The notes beneath the pieces were generated by a model, which was not told the DNA's origin, did not search any database, and saw only the letters and a program-made list of their open reading frames with translations. DNA of 64,000 bases from positions 1,810-65,809 of the forward strand of contig CAVKYO010000006.1 in assembly GCA_963660495.1 (NCBI GenBank), written 5' to 3'. This DNA is from Acidaminococcus fermentans (GTDB taxonomy: Bacteria > Bacillota_I > Bacilli_A > RF39 > UBA660). This document shows positions 49,870-56,366 of the stretch, in pieces. Both the position numbers and the translations under genes were made by a program. The first letter of the stretch is position 1. Every line of letters starts with the position of its first letter.

Positions 49870-50109
49870 ATGTTTGGAGATAGTTTTTTCAAAAGAGTTG
49901 AAAAAAAGACAAATATAAATAAAGAAACTATATTATCTTTAGCCGACAAATTACAAAGAAGTAATATGAAAGATGAAAATACCTTAAGAGAAGTCATAAA
50001 AGATATAAGTAATATGACTGGAAAAGAAGTTTCAAAAGAAAAAGAACAAAGAATAATTAACGCTATAAAAAAAGACAATATCCCAAAAGATATTGACAAT
50101 ATGTTTTAA
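49870..50109 (+). CDS. Stage VI sporulation protein F (SpoVIF/YjcC)-like small protein
   Basis: 79 aa. FFKRVEKKTNI...LADKLQ...KDENTLREVIKDISNMTGKEVSKEKEQRI recalls the SpoVIF family pattern. A strong AGGAGG RBS is present. Confidence 0.4.
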   Translation: MFGDSFFKRVEKKTNINKETILSLADKLQRSNMKDENTLREVIKDISNMTGKEVSKEKEQRIINAIKKDNIPKDIDNMF

Positions 50110-50128: not shown

Positions 50129-51139
50129 TTATTTTACTTCGATTTTGTCTCTATTAAAAACTATAGCAGTTGCAAAAATTAAAACTAGAAACAAAGACCC
50201 AAGTACATAAGCTATTGATGCACCAGTTTCAGGATTATCACCAGGAGTACTTTTAGCAGTAACAGCAGTAACACTATAAGCTTCACTTAATTTATTACTA
50301 CCAACAACACTAGCTTTATAAAAATATTTTTTACCCTTAACAACATCTTCATCATATAAATAATTAGAACCATCACAAGCAACAGTACCTATAAGAGTAT
50401 ATTCTCCATTTTCACTTTCAGATCTATAAATACTACATTTTTTAATTTCATCTGAATCATAAATTTCAAAAACATTAGCAGCTATCGTAATATAATCAGC
50501 TGAAATTGTACCAAACGAAATATCAGGTATAAATTCTTCATTAAAATCATCATAACCGTAATTAGGATTTTCAGCATTACCAAAATCTTTAATAGCATTT
50601 TGAATTTTTTCTTTATCGAAAGACATTTTTAAATAAGTTAAATAAGTACCAGAGCAACTTGAATCATCCTCTTTAAGTTCAAAATCTTTTTTTTCAACAA
50701 AGATACCATATTTATCATAATCATTAAATTTCTCATCAGAAATCCAAGTAATTATATTATAAAACTGCTCATCAGTACATCCAGCAGCATTATAAGCACC
50801 AGCCATAATTAAAGTTAAAGAAAAAGTATTATAAAATATATCATTAAAATCAGCACAAGTATTAGGAATATCTTCGCTTTCATATTCTAAATAATCATCC
50901 TCATAAGGATAAGAAAAAATAGTATCATCACTATAAGTAACTATAAATTGCTTATTAACAGAATCATTACTTAAAGGAAGAAAAGTAGCATCTGAAACAT
51001 TAAAAACATTTTTAAAATACTCATTACCATTTGTCACAACATCATCAGGATCAACTAATTCTCCAGCCGCTAAAACATTAGTAATCATAAATTGACAGAC
51101 CAATATTCCAGTCATTAAAAAATAAATAACCTTTTTCAT
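50129..51139 (-). CDS. Secreted cell-wall-anchored surface protein with an NPETG sorting signal
   Basis: N-terminal signal peptide (ITNVLAAGE). The C-terminus is NPETG + 22 hydrophobic residues + NRDKIEVK. Confidence 0.55.
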   Translation of the reverse strand: MKKVIYFLMTGILVCQFMITNVLAAGELVDPDDVVTNGNEYFKNVFNVSDATFLPLSNDSVNKQFIVTYSDDTIFSYPYEDDYLEYESEDIPNTCADFNDIFYNTFSLTLIMAGAYNAAGCTDEQFYNIITWISDEKFNDYDKYGIFVEKKDFELKEDDSSCSGTYLTYLKMSFDKEKIQNAIKDFGNAENPNYGYDDFNEEFIPDISFGTISADYITIAANVFEIYDSDEIKKCSIYRSESENGEYTLIGTVACDGSNYLYDEDVVKGKKYFYKASVVGSNKLSEAYSVTAVTAKSTPGDNPETGASIAYVLGSLFLVLIFATAIVFNRDKIEVK

Positions 51140-51259
51140 ATAAACACCTCTTTACTATACCAAATATATCATAACATCTATTAAAAGTAAAATTATAAAT
51201 ATTAAAAGTTCTTTTTTTACAAAAAACATCATAATCTTTACTGTATAAGGAGAATGTAT

Positions 51260-51640
51260 ATGGATAAACAAGAAATAATAAAAAATATTGCGAAAAGAAC
51301 AAATGGTGATATCTACTTAGGCGTTGTTGGAGCAGTAAGAACTGGTAAATCAACTTTTATAAAACGTATGGTAGAAACATTAATTGTTCCTAATATTGAA
51401 AATGAATATGAAAGAAAAAGAGCCTTAGATGAAATTCCCCAAAGTGCTGCCGGTAAAACGATTATGACTACAGAGCCAAAATTTGTTCCTAATAATGCTG
51501 CCAATATTAAAATAGATGACTTTACATGTAATATTAGATTAATAGACTGTGTAGGATACATGATTGATAAAGCTCAAGGAGCAACAGATGAAAATGGACC
51601 TAGAATGGTTAAAACTCCCTGGGTAAAGCTCTCTAAGTGA
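51260..51640 (+). CDS. spoIVA: Stage IV sporulation protein A, N-terminal portion (gene interrupted; as read the ORF ends at a stop inside the insertion)
   Basis: MDKQEIIKNIAKRTNGDIYLGVVGAVRTGKSTFIK...GPRMVKTPW is essentially collinear with the SpoIVA N-terminus up to TPW. The frame then diverges (VKLSK-stop). AAGGAG lies 7 nt upstream of the ATG at 51260. Confidence 0.85.
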   Translation: MDKQEIIKNIAKRTNGDIYLGVVGAVRTGKSTFIKRMVETLIVPNIENEYERKRALDEIPQSAAGKTIMTTEPKFVPNNAANIKIDDFTCNIRLIDCVGYMIDKAQGATDENGPRMVKTPWVKLSK

Positions 51641-51740
51641 TACCAAAATAAAAATAAATAAATGCCGATAAAATAAGGGCAAAAGACAATATTTCACTTT
51701 ATTAGTTAAAAACTAATTTATAGAAAGTGAGATATTTTTT

Positions 51741-51965
51741 ATGAAAAATGAGCAAATTGTGGGAATTGATGACTTAATACATTTGCCCTTAAAATATGTC
51801 AAGATAAATAAAGTAGTATTCCCTATTGAGAAAGTTAAGTATTTATCTAATGACGAAGTTACAGAAATATTAAAAGATTGCATTGATAATCAAATAATAT
51901 ATAATCCTAATTATGAAATGGTTAAGAATATTACTTTATTAGATGATACAGGTCCAAAAATATAG
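51741..51965 (+). CDS. Hypothetical protein (element cargo)
   Basis: 74 aa ORF inside the intervening element. No motif. Confidence 0.3.
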   Translation: MKNEQIVGIDDLIHLPLKYVKINKVVFPIEKVKYLSNDEVTEILKDCIDNQIIYNPNYEMVKNITLLDDTGPKI

Positions 51966-52016
51966 TATAATTTAATTAACAGTTTAACAAAAAAATTAAA
52001 ACAAGGAGGCAAAAAA

Positions 52017-53012
52017 ATGGAAGAACATGGAAATATAATTATTTATAAAGATAAGAATGGTAATGATAATATTGAAGTAAAAATGCAAGATAATACTGTT
52101 TGGCTAAATCAAGAACAATTAGTTAAATTATATAATTCAAGCAAATCTAATATATCTGAACACATTAAACACATATTTGAAGACGGAGAATTAGAAGAAT
52201 CGTCAACTGTTCGGAATTTCCGAACAGTTGCCTCTAATGGCAAAATTTATAACATGATGTATTATAATCTTGATATGATTGTTGCTGTTGGATTTAGAGT
52301 TAGATCTAATATAGGAACTAATTTTAGAAGATGGGCAAATGAAAGATTGACTGAATATATGACAAAAGGATTTACAATGAATGATGATTTACTTAAACGA
52401 GCTGGTGGTGGATTATATTTTGATGAACTACTTTCTAGAATTCGTGATATTAGATCATCTGAAAAAGTTTTTTGGAGAAAAATACTTGATATTTATGCTA
52501 CTTCTATTGATTATGATCCTAAAGCAGAAATTACACAAGAATTTTTTAAAACAGTTCAAAATAAAATGCACTGGGCTGCACATGGACACACAGCTGCAGA
52601 AGTTATTGTAGAAAGAGCCGATGGAAATAAGGATTTTATGGGATTAACTTCATTTAATGGAGATAGACCTACTTTACTAGATGCTCAAATTGCTAAAAAC
52701 TATTTAAATGATAAAGAATTAGATATTTTAAATAGGATTGTTTCTATGTATTTAGATTATGCAGAATTACAAGCTATTGAGCAAAGAACCATGACAATGA
52801 GTGATTGGGTTAAAGAATTAAATTACTTTTTAACTATGAATAGAAAAGACATTTTAAAAGATTCTGGCAAAATCAATCATAAAGAAGCAATGAATCACGC
52901 AAAAAAAGAATATGATAAGTATAAAGACAGAATTGCTTTAAAACCTAGTGAAGTTGAACTTCATTATTTAGAAAGTATTAAAGATTTAGAAAAATTAGAA
53001 AATAAAGATTAA
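52017..53012 (+). CDS. RhuM-family (Virulence_RhuM) protein
   Basis: WLNQEQLVKLYNSSKSNISEHIKHIFEDGELEE and YNLDMIVAVGFRVRS match the conserved RhuM-family N-terminal block. A GGAGG RBS is present. Confidence 0.65.
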   Translation: MEEHGNIIIYKDKNGNDNIEVKMQDNTVWLNQEQLVKLYNSSKSNISEHIKHIFEDGELEESSTVRNFRTVASNGKIYNMMYYNLDMIVAVGFRVRSNIGTNFRRWANERLTEYMTKGFTMNDDLLKRAGGGLYFDELLSRIRDIRSSEKVFWRKILDIYATSIDYDPKAEITQEFFKTVQNKMHWAAHGHTAAEVIVERADGNKDFMGLTSFNGDRPTLLDAQIAKNYLNDKELDILNRIVSMYLDYAELQAIEQRTMTMSDWVKELNYFLTMNRKDILKDSGKINHKEAMNHAKKEYDKYKDRIALKPSEVELHYLESIKDLEKLENKD

Positions 53013-53091
53013 TATTTCAGTATGTAAGCATTTCTTACATACTGATTTTTTAAAGGCATGTTTAACCAAATATCTTTTTTGTTGTGTAAAA

Positions 53092-53346
53092 ATGGAAATT
53101 GATTTAAATGAAATAATAATATCTGAAACTATTAATAGTATCACAGATAACAACAACGATTATATTAAGTTTGGTTTAATCACTCTCAATTATGATAAAA
53201 GAAAAGTATATACTAGTTTTAATATTAACCGAAATCTTTATGAAATATATAAAGATTTTTTTGTTAAAGGAACAAAAGTATTTATTAAAGGTTATCTTAA
53301 CTATTATATTACCAATAATAAAATCCAATCTTTTATAAACGTATGA
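53092..53346 (+). CDS. Hypothetical protein (element cargo)
   Basis: 84 aa ORF with no motif. Confidence 0.25.
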   Translation: MEIDLNEIIISETINSITDNNNDYIKFGLITLNYDKRKVYTSFNINRNLYEIYKDFFVKGTKVFIKGYLNYYITNNKIQSFINV

Positions 53347-53411
53347 TAATTTATGAAGAACAGTAATTTTTATAGACTATTACACATAGAATTCACTGTG
53401 GAGGAATAATC

Positions 53412-53594
53412 ATGTATGACACATTAGAATTTTATGATAATACGGGTTGTGATTTAAAAGACGTTTTAAAAAGTTGTATATATAAATATTATATAGCTAA
53501 TAAAAATTCATTAAAAGCATTCAAAACAGACGAAAAAAATAACATAATTGATTCAACCAATAAAGTGAAAATGTTGCCAAGTGAAAGGAGTTAA
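53412..53594 (+). CDS. Hypothetical protein (element cargo)
   Basis: 60 aa ORF with a GGAGG RBS. It ends 2 nt before the recombinase start. Confidence 0.3.
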   Translation: MYDTLEFYDNTGCDLKDVLKSCIYKYYIANKNSLKAFKTDEKNNIIDSTNKVKMLPSERS

Positions 53595-53596
53595 AA

Positions 53597-55183
53597 GTGT
53601 ATAATAGATATACGATAGACAATACAATTTTTAAAATAGCCATTTATATAAGACTATCTCGTGAAGATGGTGACGATATGGAATCAGAAAGTGTCACTAA
53701 TCAAAGAAGTTTATTAACTAGTTATTTAAAAGCGCAAGAATTAGTTGCAGTTGATATTTATGTTGATGATGGTTATACAGGAACAAATTTTGAGCGTCCA
53801 GAGTTTAAAAGAATGTTAAATGACATTGAAAACGGAAAAATTAATATGGTTATAACAAAAGACTTATCAAGATTAGGTCGTGACCATGTTATGACAGGTT
53901 TCTATGTTGAAACCTTTTTTCCCAAAAATGATGTCAGATATATTGCTATAAATGACGATATAGATACTTTTTTTGAAACCATTGGCTCAGATATGATGCC
54001 ATTTAAATTAAGTATGAATGATATGTATGCAAAAGACATTTCCAAAAAAGTTCGTTCAAACTTACTACAAATGAAAAAAGACGGAAAGTTTTGTGGAAGT
54101 GCACCATCTTATGGTTATATGAGAGATCCAAATGATAAACACAAATTAATACCAGATCCAAATACTGCTCCTATTGTAAAAAGAATATTTGATTTATATG
54201 TCGCTGGTTATGGTAGTTCACAAATTGCCGAAATATTAACAAGAGAAGAATTACCAACACCTATTATGTATAAATACTCTGGTGCTAAATTAAATAACTT
54301 TGACCATCCTGAAATATGGAAACACACATCTGTTAGTAATATCATTAAAAATAGAGTTTATATTGGCGATTTAATCCAACACAGAGTTCAAAAAGTAAAC
54401 TATAAAATTAAGAAAATGAAAAATGTTCCAGAAAGTGAATGGTGTATTAAGGAAAATGCACACGAGCCAGTTGTTGATAGAAGAACATTTGAAATAGCAC
54501 AATCTATTAAAGATTCGCGGGATACTTATAATTCTGAACGAAGAAATATTAATTATGTATTATCTGATTTAGTTTATTGTAAAGATTGTGGTGCTAGAAT
54601 GAGTATTAGCTATGATAAAAAAAGAGATAGAGTTACAATGAATTGTAATAACTATCGTAAGTTTAGTAAGTATGATATATGTTTTTCTCATTATATTAAC
54701 TATACTAAATTAGAAAAAACTGTCTATAACAAATTAAGCACTATGGCTAGATGGTATATTAATGATAAAGATGAATTTGAAAGTATCATCAAAAATCAAT
54801 ATGTTGATCCTAAACAAGATAAACTTAAAAAGATTGATGAACTTAATTTAAAGATAGCTGAATTAAAAAGAAAACAAGACTCTTTATATGATGATAAATT
54901 TAATAATATTATAAATGTAGAAACTTATCAAAGATTATTTAAAACTACTGAAGAAGATATTAAAACTGCAAACGAAAAATTAGAAAAATTAAAAGAAGAA
55001 ATTTCCAGTATAAACGAAAATTCCTCTTGTTATGTTGAATATTTAGATATAATTAAAAACTTTTTAGATATGAAAAATCCAACAAGAGAAATTATGAATA
55101 GATTAATTGATAAGATATATGTAACGAAAGATAAAAAACTAGAAATTCATTATAGAATTAAAAAAAGTGAAGTATTAGTATAA
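53597..55183 (+). CDS. Large serine recombinase (SpoIVCA/CisA-like), GTG start
   Basis: Resolvase catalytic domain IAIYIRLSREDGDD with the Ser nucleophile in RLS. A recombinase domain follows, then a zinc ribbon (CKDCGARMS...CNNYRK) and a C-terminal coiled coil. 528 aa. AAAGGAG lies 7 nt upstream of the GTG. Confidence 0.85.
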   Translation: MYNRYTIDNTIFKIAIYIRLSREDGDDMESESVTNQRSLLTSYLKAQELVAVDIYVDDGYTGTNFERPEFKRMLNDIENGKINMVITKDLSRLGRDHVMTGFYVETFFPKNDVRYIAINDDIDTFFETIGSDMMPFKLSMNDMYAKDISKKVRSNLLQMKKDGKFCGSAPSYGYMRDPNDKHKLIPDPNTAPIVKRIFDLYVAGYGSSQIAEILTREELPTPIMYKYSGAKLNNFDHPEIWKHTSVSNIIKNRVYIGDLIQHRVQKVNYKIKKMKNVPESEWCIKENAHEPVVDRRTFEIAQSIKDSRDTYNSERRNINYVLSDLVYCKDCGARMSISYDKKRDRVTMNCNNYRKFSKYDICFSHYINYTKLEKTVYNKLSTMARWYINDKDEFESIIKNQYVDPKQDKLKKIDELNLKIAELKRKQDSLYDDKFNNIINVETYQRLFKTTEEDIKTANEKLEKLKEEISSINENSSCYVEYLDIIKNFLDMKNPTREIMNRLIDKIYVTKDKKLEIHYRIKKSEVLV

Positions 55184-55253
55184 GAAAAATACAGGTTGCT
55201 TTTGAGCAATTTTTAAAAAGACTTATGGGTATCACTAAACATACTCAGACTGG

Positions 55254-56366
55254 TACACAGAGGAAATACCATTTGTAGAAGCTGCCGAAATAGGCACTGA
55301 AAAAGTTATAAAAGACCATTCTACCATTGGTATCGTTGTAACAACAGATGGCTCTATCGGTGAATTTGAAAGGAATGACTACATAGAATCTGAATCAAGA
55401 GTAATAGAAGAATTAAAAAATATAGGTAAACCATTCATAATAGTTCTAAATACAACTCATCCAACGCTTCCAGAAACAGAAAAATTAGCTGACAAGTTAA
55501 AAGAAGAATACAATGTTCCAGTACTACCAATTAGTGTAGAAGCAATGAACGAAAAAGACATGTACAATATTTTAAAAGAAGCATTATATGAATTCCCAGT
55601 CTTAGAAGTAAAAGTAAATATGCCTGAATGGATAGCAATTCTAAATCCAGAACATGAAGTTAAAAAAAGTTATATTGACTCAATAAAAGAAAGTGTTATA
55701 GAAATAGATAAATTAAGAGATATAGATAACATAATAAGTCATTTTTTAACTAATCCTATGATTGAGAAAAGTTATTTAGCTGACGTTGATCCTTCAACTG
55801 GAATAATTACCGTAAATCTAACTGCCAGTGCCGAACTTTATAATAAAACATTAACCGACATTATTAAAATAGATGTCAAAAATAAAGCAGACTTATTATC
55901 ACTATTCCAAGACTATAACATTGCTAAAAAAGAATATGACCAGATAAAATATGCTTTAAAAATGGTCAAGCAAACTGGTTATGGTGTCGCAACTCCATCT
56001 ATTGAAGATATGAAATTAGATAAACCAGAAATAATAAAACAAGGTCCAAGATATGGTGTTAAATTAAAAGCCGTTGCACCATCAATTCATATGATAAGAG
56101 TCGATGTTGAGTCAACCTTTGAGCCAATAATAGGTAGTGAAGTACAATGTAAAGAACTAATAGATTATCTAATGAAAGATCATGATAATAATCCAAATGA
56201 AATATGGAAAAGCGAAATTTTTGGTAGAAGTCTAGATTCAATAGTACAAGAAGGAATCCAATCAAAAATAAGTCTAATGCCAGATAACATACGTTTTAAA
56301 CTTCAAACTACTTTAACAAAAGTTGTAAATAAAGGCTCAAATAACATGATTGCAATAGTAATTTAA
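55254..56366 (+). CDS. spoIVA: Stage IV sporulation protein A, C-terminal portion (in frame with the 51260..51622 segment after precise excision)
   Basis: EIPFVEAAEIGTEKVIKDHSTIGIVVTTDGSIGE...ALYEFPVLEVKVNMPEW...MVKQTGYGVA...KAVAPSIHMI...GRSL is collinear with B. subtilis SpoIVA residues ~122-492. There is no start codon or RBS at this position. Confidence 0.85.
   Translation, partial: YTEEIPFVEAAEIGTEKVIKDHSTIGIVVTTDGSIGEFERNDYIESESRVIEELKNIGKPFIIVLNTTHPTLPETEKLADKLKEEYNVPVLPISVEAMNEKDMYNILKEALYEFPVLEVKVNMPEWIAILNPEHEVKKSYIDSIKESVIEIDKLRDIDNIISHFLTNPMIEKSYLADVDPSTGIITVNLTASAELYNKTLTDIIKIDVKNKADLLSLFQDYNIAKKEYDQIKYALKMVKQTGYGVATPSIEDMKLDKPEIIKQGPRYGVKLKAVAPSIHMIRVDVESTFEPIIGSEVQCKELIDYLMKDHDNNPNEIWKSEIFGRSLDSIVQEGIQSKISLMPDNIRFKLQTTLTKVVNKGSNNMIAIVI

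Follow-up and report, generated by a model that had tools for sequence, protein, structure and literature searches.

We analyzed a 64,000-nucleotide (nt) stretch of contig CAVKYO010000006.1 (GenBank assembly GCA_963660495.1, Acidaminococcus fermentans), hereafter called the window, in which the sporulation gene spoIVA is split in two by an insert of 3,631 bp. The 5' part of the gene ends with the TGG codon of Trp123, and the 3' part resumes at this same codon on the other side of the insert. Every feature in the insert lies on the + strand, and among them is a gene for a large serine recombinase. The features relevant to the split gene, to the putative left and right attachment sites (attL and attR), and to the recombination genes are the following, where aa stands for amino acids and ORF for open reading frame.

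51208-51237, + strand: promoter-like element of the host spoIVA, GTTCTTTTTTTACAAAAAACATCATAATCT, with a T-rich -35-like box and a CATA-type -10
51254-51622, + strand: 5' part of spoIVA, codons 1-123, the last being Trp123 (TGG); matches the SpoIVA_ATPase profile over 1-122 (E = 2.7e-58)
51597-51644, + strand: putative attL, with B half-site 51597-51620, central TG 51620-51621, and P' half-site 51621-51644
51620-51621, + strand: predicted crossover TG in attL (alternative: GG at 51621-51622); TGG is common to 6/6 attL/attR pairs
51636-51644, + strand: distal motif of the P' arm, AGTGATACC, half-site positions 16-24; candidate recombinase-binding motif
53363-53392, + strand: promoter-like element GTAATTTTTATAGACTATTACACATAGAAT of the small-ORF/recombinase operon; architecture shared by 8/8 elements
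53412-53594, + strand: 60-aa ORF, candidate recombination directionality factor, conserved and directly upstream of the recombinase gene
53597-55183, + strand: large serine recombinase, 528 aa, GTG start, catalytic Ser21 in an IRLSRED motif
55228-55236, + strand: distal motif of the P arm, GGTATCACT, half-site positions 24-16; candidate recombinase-binding motif
55228-55275, + strand: putative attR, with P half-site 55228-55251, central TG 55251-55252, and B' half-site 55252-55275
55251-56366, + strand: 3' part of spoIVA, codon 123 to the stop; ATPase profile over 124-237, followed by the middle and C-terminal domains
55262-55270, + strand: B' arm sequence GGAAATACC at half-site positions 11-19; agrees with the distal motif at 6/9 bases and is shifted 5 bp inward

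Across the element, the match to the Pfam SpoIVA_ATPase profile stops at 122 and picks up again at 124. When the two halves are joined in silico within TGG (joint CCCTGGTACACAG), they give a spoIVA of 493 codons that aligns to intact genes with no gaps over 1,476-1,481 nt, at 83.7% nucleotide identity for locus L114 and 81.5% for L115. The peptide across the joint is identical to that of intact homologs (...MVKTPWYTEEIPF...; GATDENGPRMVKTPW|YTEEIPF), and intact SpoIVA proteins exist that are up to 91% identical. The target is restored in silico with neither gain nor loss of a base, a feature of conservative recombination, and this zero-gap alignment bears out the in-frame rejoined product proposed in a first, sequence-only reading of this DNA. 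All the split spoIVA halves that we examined are intact ORFs. In the unjoined state, the truncated N-terminal fragment of SpoIVA ends at a TGA (51638-51640) that lies inside the AGTGATACC / GTGATACC motif. The fixed distance (TGG + 15 nt) gives the elements L105, L106, and L107, which have a 14-nt spacing, the same in-frame stop after five extra codons past TGG. The exception is L117, where an earlier in-frame stop, TAA, directly follows TGG.

The left junction reads ...AAAACTCCC TGG GTAAAGCTCTCTAAGTGATACC... (longer read: ...GGTTAAAACTCCC TGG GTAAAGCTCTCTA AGTGATACC AAAAT...) and the right junction reads ...GGTATCACTAAACATACTCAGAC TGG TACACAGAGG... (longer read: ...TTATGG GGTATCACT AAACATACTCAGAC TGG TACACAGAGG...). 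The sequence-only reading had placed the tetranucleotide CTGG at both junctions, and it is indeed present at 51619-51622 and 55250-55253; the coordinates given there were correct to 1-3 nt. The inverted repeats described near the two ends hold in part: the element-side arms share a perfect inverted repeat of 9 nt, but the strings of 11-13 nt that had been quoted are only partly complementary beyond it. Each of the two 9-mers, AGTGATACC and GGTATCACT, has a single copy in the window, and the two mirror each other exactly about the TG of TGG (15 nt + TGG + 14 nt). We numbered the half-sites of attL and attR from 1 to 24 outward from the central dinucleotide, on the assumption that Rutherford et al. 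2013 count a base of this dinucleotide as position 1. The predicted joints are GGTTAAAACTCCCTGGTACACAGAGGAAATACC for attB and CATACTCAGACTGGGTAAAGCTCTCTAAG for attP, and the arms match at 15/30 positions in the reconstructed attP vs 8/30 in the reconstructed attB. An in-register run of at least 9 has a p of 2.7e-4 among random window pairs, the junction pair having been fixed beforehand by the gene split. A blind search of all TGG pairs in the window, whose GC content is 27.5%, gave 19 pairs with runs of at least 8, and a generic repeat finder returned hundreds of AT-rich pairs, with the att repeat not among the longest. Hence, the inverted repeat taken alone is weak evidence. The metagenome locus L116 (SRR13434598) is 100% identical to the window over 6,664 nt.

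It is the relatives of the element that make the repeat convincing. The recombinase has homologs over a graded range of identities, and we collected 16 independent relatives with genomic context, whose recombinases are 52-94% identical to that of the window, from metagenome assemblies and from species-representative genomes whose labels read uncultured Bacilli, Tenericutes or Mycoplasma. All 16 lie directly upstream of a 3' part of spoIVA that starts at the same codon, and the SpoIVA of their hosts is only 57-81% identical to that of the window. The distal motif GGTATCAC is found exactly 15 nt before TGG in 15 of the 16 attR, and L117 has GGTATCAT, with one mismatch. On the other side, GTGATACC is present in 6/6 attL, 14 nt after TGG in five of them and 15 nt after it in L005. 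The 14-15 nt between the distal motif and TGG differ widely among elements. Since the motif is invariant at a fixed distance within variable sequence, it is predicted to mark a protein-binding site. This spoIVA-targeting family ends near 50% recombinase identity, because more distant homologs lack spoIVA in their flanks: no spoIVA was found in the fetched flanks of the genome loci with recombinase homologs of at most 45% identity, nor in those of a 47% identical homolog. The latter (L119, 10001-11611) occupies one end of a conjugative-type element with a coupling protein, MobL, and ArdC, beside a SpoU methylase gene.

The target codon also bears on a quite different explanation, in which the repeats are the terminal inverted repeats of a transposon and a DDE-type transposase would have duplicated TGG or CTGG as its target site. 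A short direct repeat does flank the element, and inverted repeats are found near its ends. However, these repeats start 14-15 nt inside the ends instead of being terminal, no DDE transposase is found among the element proteins, and one identical codon is used in 17 different hosts, which argues for site-specific recombination. We therefore rejected this reading, to which we give almost no weight.

The recombinase itself matches PF00239 (Resolvase), PF07508 (Recombinase), and PF13408 (Zn_ribbon_recom) above cutoff, together with DUF4368, as well as the integrase family phrog_95 (E = 2e-104). In 20 homologs, the IRLSRED residues R19, S21, E23, and D24 do not vary, and a K/E-rich, heptad-like stretch, putatively a coiled coil, is visible after the zinc ribbon. 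The recombinase gene stops 44 nt short of the distal motif of attR, such that it adjoins one end of the element. Among solved structures, the closest in sequence are the catalytic domain of TnpX (2mhc, E = 6e-27) and the SPbeta integrase; among viral relatives the best match has 43% identity. The domains of the protein, the position of the motif, and the conservation across the family support the earlier assignment of the junctions to attL/attR half-sites of a large serine recombinase. We consider it very likely that the 3,631-bp insert is an integrative element lodged in the Trp123 codon of spoIVA, with attL at 51597-51644 and attR at 55228-55275, and that the mechanism described below, taken as a whole, accounts for this arrangement.

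The core shared by attL and attR varies with the element: it is CTGG in the window, GTGG in L005, TGGT in L117, and TGG only in L105, L106, and L107. Hence, TGG is the sole core common to 6/6 attL/attR pairs, and CTGG, which had been proposed as the shared core, fits the window element but not the family. Three one-base extensions over twelve flanking positions are at chance level, so the C of CTGG appears to be incidental, with the functional core lying within TGG. The crossover had been predicted at TG or GG, both of which are non-palindromic and within this core, and the symmetry of the sites favors the former. When centered on TG, GTGATACC occupies positions 17-24 on both arms in 5/6 elements (16-24 for the 9-mer of the window), and 5/6 reconstructed attP sites follow the arrangement GGTATCAC-N15-TGG-N14-GTGATACC, i.e. 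imperfect inverted half-sites spanning about 50 bp around the central dinucleotide. Strand exchange at GG (51621-51622 / 55252-55253) in the same system is an unlikely variant. This dinucleotide is also inside the core common to the six pairs, and the 15/15 spacing of L005, which centers on the middle G, fits GG as well as TG. However, a GG center puts the motif at unequal positions in 5/6 elements, at 18-25 in one arm and at 16-23 in its partner, whereas the TG arrangement agrees with the attP of serine integrases, described as 2-fold symmetric (PMC3783163). Because TG is the symmetry center in 5/6 pairs, we infer that it is the most likely place of the cut, and the best prediction for the crossover.

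The position of the distal motif is in line with structural work on a serine integrase. The zinc-ribbon domain of LI integrase contacts attP at positions 16-24, and the related attB motif is 5 bp nearer the center, at positions 11-19 (PMC3783163). In the host DNA on the right side of the element, GGAAATACC occupies these very positions. More generally, AT.CC is found at positions 15-19 in 15/15 host B' arms, ending at 19 vs 24 in attP.

These observations suggest how the element would leave the gene. Dimers of the 528-aa recombinase would bind the half-sites of attL and attR, the zinc-ribbon domain recognizing the distal AGTGATACC motif at positions 16-24 of both element-side arms. After synapsis, both strands of both sites would be cleaved at the central TG of TGG, and the half-sites would rotate and be religated. 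The expected products are an intact spoIVA, with attB reading ...CCC TGG TAC..., and a circle with the nearly symmetric attP GGTATCAC-N15-TGG-N14-GTGATACC. The individual steps (binding, synapsis, cleavage, rotation, and religation) are established for large serine recombinases (PMC3783163, PMC5595907).

Recombination of attL with attR normally requires a directionality factor, and the small ORF upstream of the recombinase gene is a candidate for this role. It is present in 9/9 elements examined (window, L100, L104-L107, L109, L112, L117), with 38-72 aa. It abuts or overlaps the start of the recombinase gene in 8/9, and in L117, where it has 38 aa, it is within 300 nt upstream. The alignment shows 31-83% identity and 11 invariant positions, including M1, Y2, L19, K20, C22, Y24, and Y26-27, in the pattern MYxTLEFY...DLKxxLKSCIYKYY...NKN. 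Skr, the 64-aa factor of the skin element, has the same position relative to spoIVCA (PMC6957869). The putative function of the small ORF is thus proposed from its position and its conservation.

The region upstream of the small ORF has a common architecture in 8/8 elements, namely GT(A/T)(A/C)TTTT, about 14 nt, and CATA(N3)T, just before the ribosome-binding site. A pattern built from these element promoters alone has two matches in the window: the one at 53363 and the host spoIVA promoter at 51208. In related hosts, CATA-type -10 boxes are also found before spoIVA. Boxes of this type are characteristic of sigma E and sigma K, which act in the mother cell, and sigma-E-dependent expression of spoIVA in the mother cell is established in Bacillus subtilis and Clostridioides difficile. 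In a published list, spoIVA is among the sigma-E targets (PMC5025042). The resemblance of the promoters suggests co-expression of the recombination genes with spoIVA in the mother cell, in which case, and by analogy with known elements, excision would presumably take place in sporulating cells. The chance of a pattern match in the slot of about 30 nt before spoIVA is roughly estimated at 5e-4. A scan for sigma-70 promoters was uninformative, with 34 sites vs 33 expected.

Several results weigh against the model described above. Over the whole window, the promoter pattern has 2 matches where 2.0 are expected by chance; therefore, only their placement is informative. The 60-aa ORF has no Pfam or PHROG match. 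On the B (left, host) arm we found no convincing inward-shifted motif, and the spacing of L005 is neutral with respect to the predicted cut. The attP joint was not found in viral contigs, nor, with a strict pattern, in JGI metagenome contigs. Finally, a search for an empty site in the same species found none; the nearest intact SpoIVA is 91% identical. A looser attP pattern gave 32 matches in JGI contigs, all of them unrelated, mostly GC-rich, and devoid of a recombinase homolog, which we attribute to chance or to an unrelated conserved gene. One of these chance matches (L125, 1000-1048) is a near-perfect palindrome of 49 nt in an unrelated contig of 40% GC with no recombinase nearby. We also considered L104 (3,598 bp) as a possible excised circle and rejected it, as it is an ordinary integrated fragment.

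The lack of a detected excised form in viral or JGI metagenome contigs is what one would see if the element were an inactive relic, i.e. a fixed insertion with a pseudogenised spoIVA and repeats left over from a past integration. We regard this as very improbable. The window and all 16 relatives have an intact recombinase, an intact small ORF, two intact att sites, and intact gene halves, and the distal motif is invariant amid varying neighbor bases, which indicates ongoing selection.

The movements of the family are relevant to the function of the element. A recombinase 94% identical to that of the window (L100-L103 group) is found in a host with a 57.5% identical SpoIVA, and a 57% identical one (L007) in a host whose SpoIVA is 77% identical. 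As the similarity of recombinases does not track that of the hosts, the family moves horizontally between distant hosts. This could mean that the att architecture is real but belongs to a selfish integrative or mobilizable element, for which a conserved spoIVA codon is a safe landing site. Excision would then serve transfer and would not be tied to sporulation, and the carriers would sporulate poorly or not at all. In line with this, the relatives L100 and L105 carry a Mob_Pre relaxase, and the closest solved relative of the recombinase is the catalytic domain of TnpX, which comes from a mobilizable transposon. However, every split spoIVA half examined is an intact ORF, and the operon promoter has a CATA-type -10 like the spoIVA promoters of the hosts, unlike a housekeeping promoter. 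We find the purely selfish explanation rather unlikely, although it would not exclude a developmental role, since elements in sporulation genes combine both, e.g. SPbeta (PMC4191935).

Between the recombination genes and the ends, the window element has the following additional features.

51663-51740, + strand: left-end structures, with a small hairpin (51663-51681) and a long hairpin with a U-run (51688-51740; -19.5 kcal/mol, z = -4.8)
51741-51965, + strand: 74-aa ORF with no Pfam or PHROG match
52017-53012, + strand: cargo gene of the RhuM family, 331 aa (PF13310, E = 8e-107)
53017-53045, + strand: terminator-like hairpin of the intrinsic type after the RhuM gene (z = -5.0)
53092-53346, + strand: 84-aa ORF with no Pfam or PHROG match; its region has 76% nucleotide identity to L105
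55193-55215, + strand: weak hairpin and T-run after the recombinase gene; z = -1.1 when taken alone, its support being comparative (stem kept and loop varying in relatives)

The left-end hairpins are conserved in L105, L106, and L005, and the small one shows compensatory changes (TGCC...GGCA in the window, AACCC...GGGTT in L105). The pair looks like a terminator that would halt spoIVA transcripts before they enter the element. No relaxase was found in the window element from the Pfam and PHROG matches of its proteins. The first codons of the 74-aa ORF are conserved in L105 and L005, and its start (MKNEQI...) is shared with a 324-aa gene of L105 (1175-2149), with 84% nucleotide identity over about 300 nt. 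This ORF may be a shortened remnant of an L105-type 324-aa gene; if so, this suggests that the 3.6 kb element is a reduced derivative. Compared with L105 (10.6 kb), the window element has only three shared stretches, at 76-85% nucleotide identity: the left end (15-330, 84%), the region of the 84-aa ORF, and the block comprising the small ORF, the recombinase gene, and the right end. The sister elements L100, L105-L107, L109, L112, and L117 have highly varied cargo between conserved ends, in L107 and L117 a giant protein of surface type.

Window: RhuM
L100 and L105: Mob_Pre relaxase, helix-turn-helix regulators, and Fic
L106: AbiEii
L107: a Big_3 protein of 1,278 aa
L109: M26 peptidase and an insertion sequence
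L112: radical-SAM / ABC cluster
L117: a protein of 2,609 aa

Since such varied cargo sits between conserved ends, the recombination backbone appears to act as a cargo shuttle. Outside the element, a 79-aa ORF (49870-50109), two genes upstream of spoIVA, is the positional counterpart of a gene with a SpoVIF Pfam match in L114 and L115. Given this correspondence, the order der, small ORF, spoVIF, spoIVA is kept in element-free relatives. The window has an extra 336-aa gene of its own between spoVIF and spoIVA (50129-51139, minus strand).

The architecture matches that of the elements known to interrupt sporulation genes, namely skin, gin, vfbin, SPbeta, and yin, as the insertion is inside the coding sequence of spoIVA and its own recombinase gene is beside one end. 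The closest of these is gin, found in gerE of Bacillus cereus ATCC 10987 (GirC, GirX; PMC5595907). Both are small non-prophage elements that split a mother-cell sporulation gene, and both have their own large serine recombinase and a small directionality factor, the latter being only a candidate in the window element. In both, an imperfect inverted repeat flanks a shared core of a few bp, and the crossover of gin was likewise predicted from the symmetry center. They differ in the target (gerE vs spoIVA) and in the length of the shared core (9 bp vs 3 bp). Furthermore, excision and the role of the factor were shown experimentally for gin, whereas both are predicted for the spoIVA element, and the spoIVA family carries variable cargo, including relaxases.

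The skin elements in sigK (SpoIVCA/Skr in B. subtilis, CD1231/CD1234 in C. difficile; PMC6957869, PMC5025042) have the same order of attL, cargo, small factor gene, recombinase gene, and attR. In both systems the recombinase gene is beside the 3' gene fragment, and the 64-aa Skr ORF abuts spoIVCA as the 60-aa ORF abuts the recombinase gene. The sizes are also comparable, since skin elements down to 2.6 kb exist. However, the target of skin is sigK, its recombinase is not closely related to the one described here, and its control by sigma factors is proven, whereas for the spoIVA element such control is only suggested by the resemblance of promoters. The A118/LI integrase (PMC3783163) provides the parallel for the sites: a symmetric attP with a 9-bp motif for the zinc-ribbon domain at 16-24, and a related attB motif 5 bp inward. 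The sequence of the motif is different, the 5-bp shift is visible only in the right (B') host arm of the spoIVA element, and the LI site model is based on structure, whereas ours was read from the DNA.

Outside sporulation genes, Tn4451 and Tn4453 are clostridial mobilizable transposons that have the TnpX recombinase and the TnpZ Mob/Pre relaxase, and that integrate at loosely defined GA-containing targets. TnpX is the closest solved relative of our recombinase, and the larger relatives L100 and L105 also pair the recombinase with a Mob_Pre relaxase. In contrast, the window element has no relaxase, uses strictly one target codon, and has a candidate directionality factor.

The layout of the junctions is ordinary for this class of elements, and the target gene, spoIVA, is one for which we found no prior report. 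A full-text search of an incomplete collection of articles retrieved no paper in which spoIVA is described as split or as a site of integration, and none on this family of elements. The published split sporulation genes that we found are sigK, spoIVFB, spoVR, spoVFB, spsM, gerE, and yabG, and spoIVA was absent from the lists searched. SpoIVA is described as the sole coat-morphogenetic protein that is universally conserved in spore formers (bioRxiv 10.1101/2022.02.25.481979).

The layout fixes the boundaries of the element to the base and predicts the sequences of attB and attP as well as the crossover dinucleotide. The family offers 16 naturally occurring versions of a single recombinase/att pair, in which the distal motif is invariant and the proximal bases vary; they are useful for working out how serine integrases read their sites. 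The recombinase could also serve as a new orthogonal integrase, its 48-bp site being defined. More broadly, it is possible, but we would put it only tentatively, that this is a widespread and horizontally moving family that swaps its cargo among uncultured gut Bacilli, always at Trp123 of spoIVA, and whose operon promoter copies that of the host spoIVA, so that the signal turning on the split gene would also trigger its repair. If this is true, the assembly of the basement layer of the spore coat in these bacteria would depend on a mobile element.

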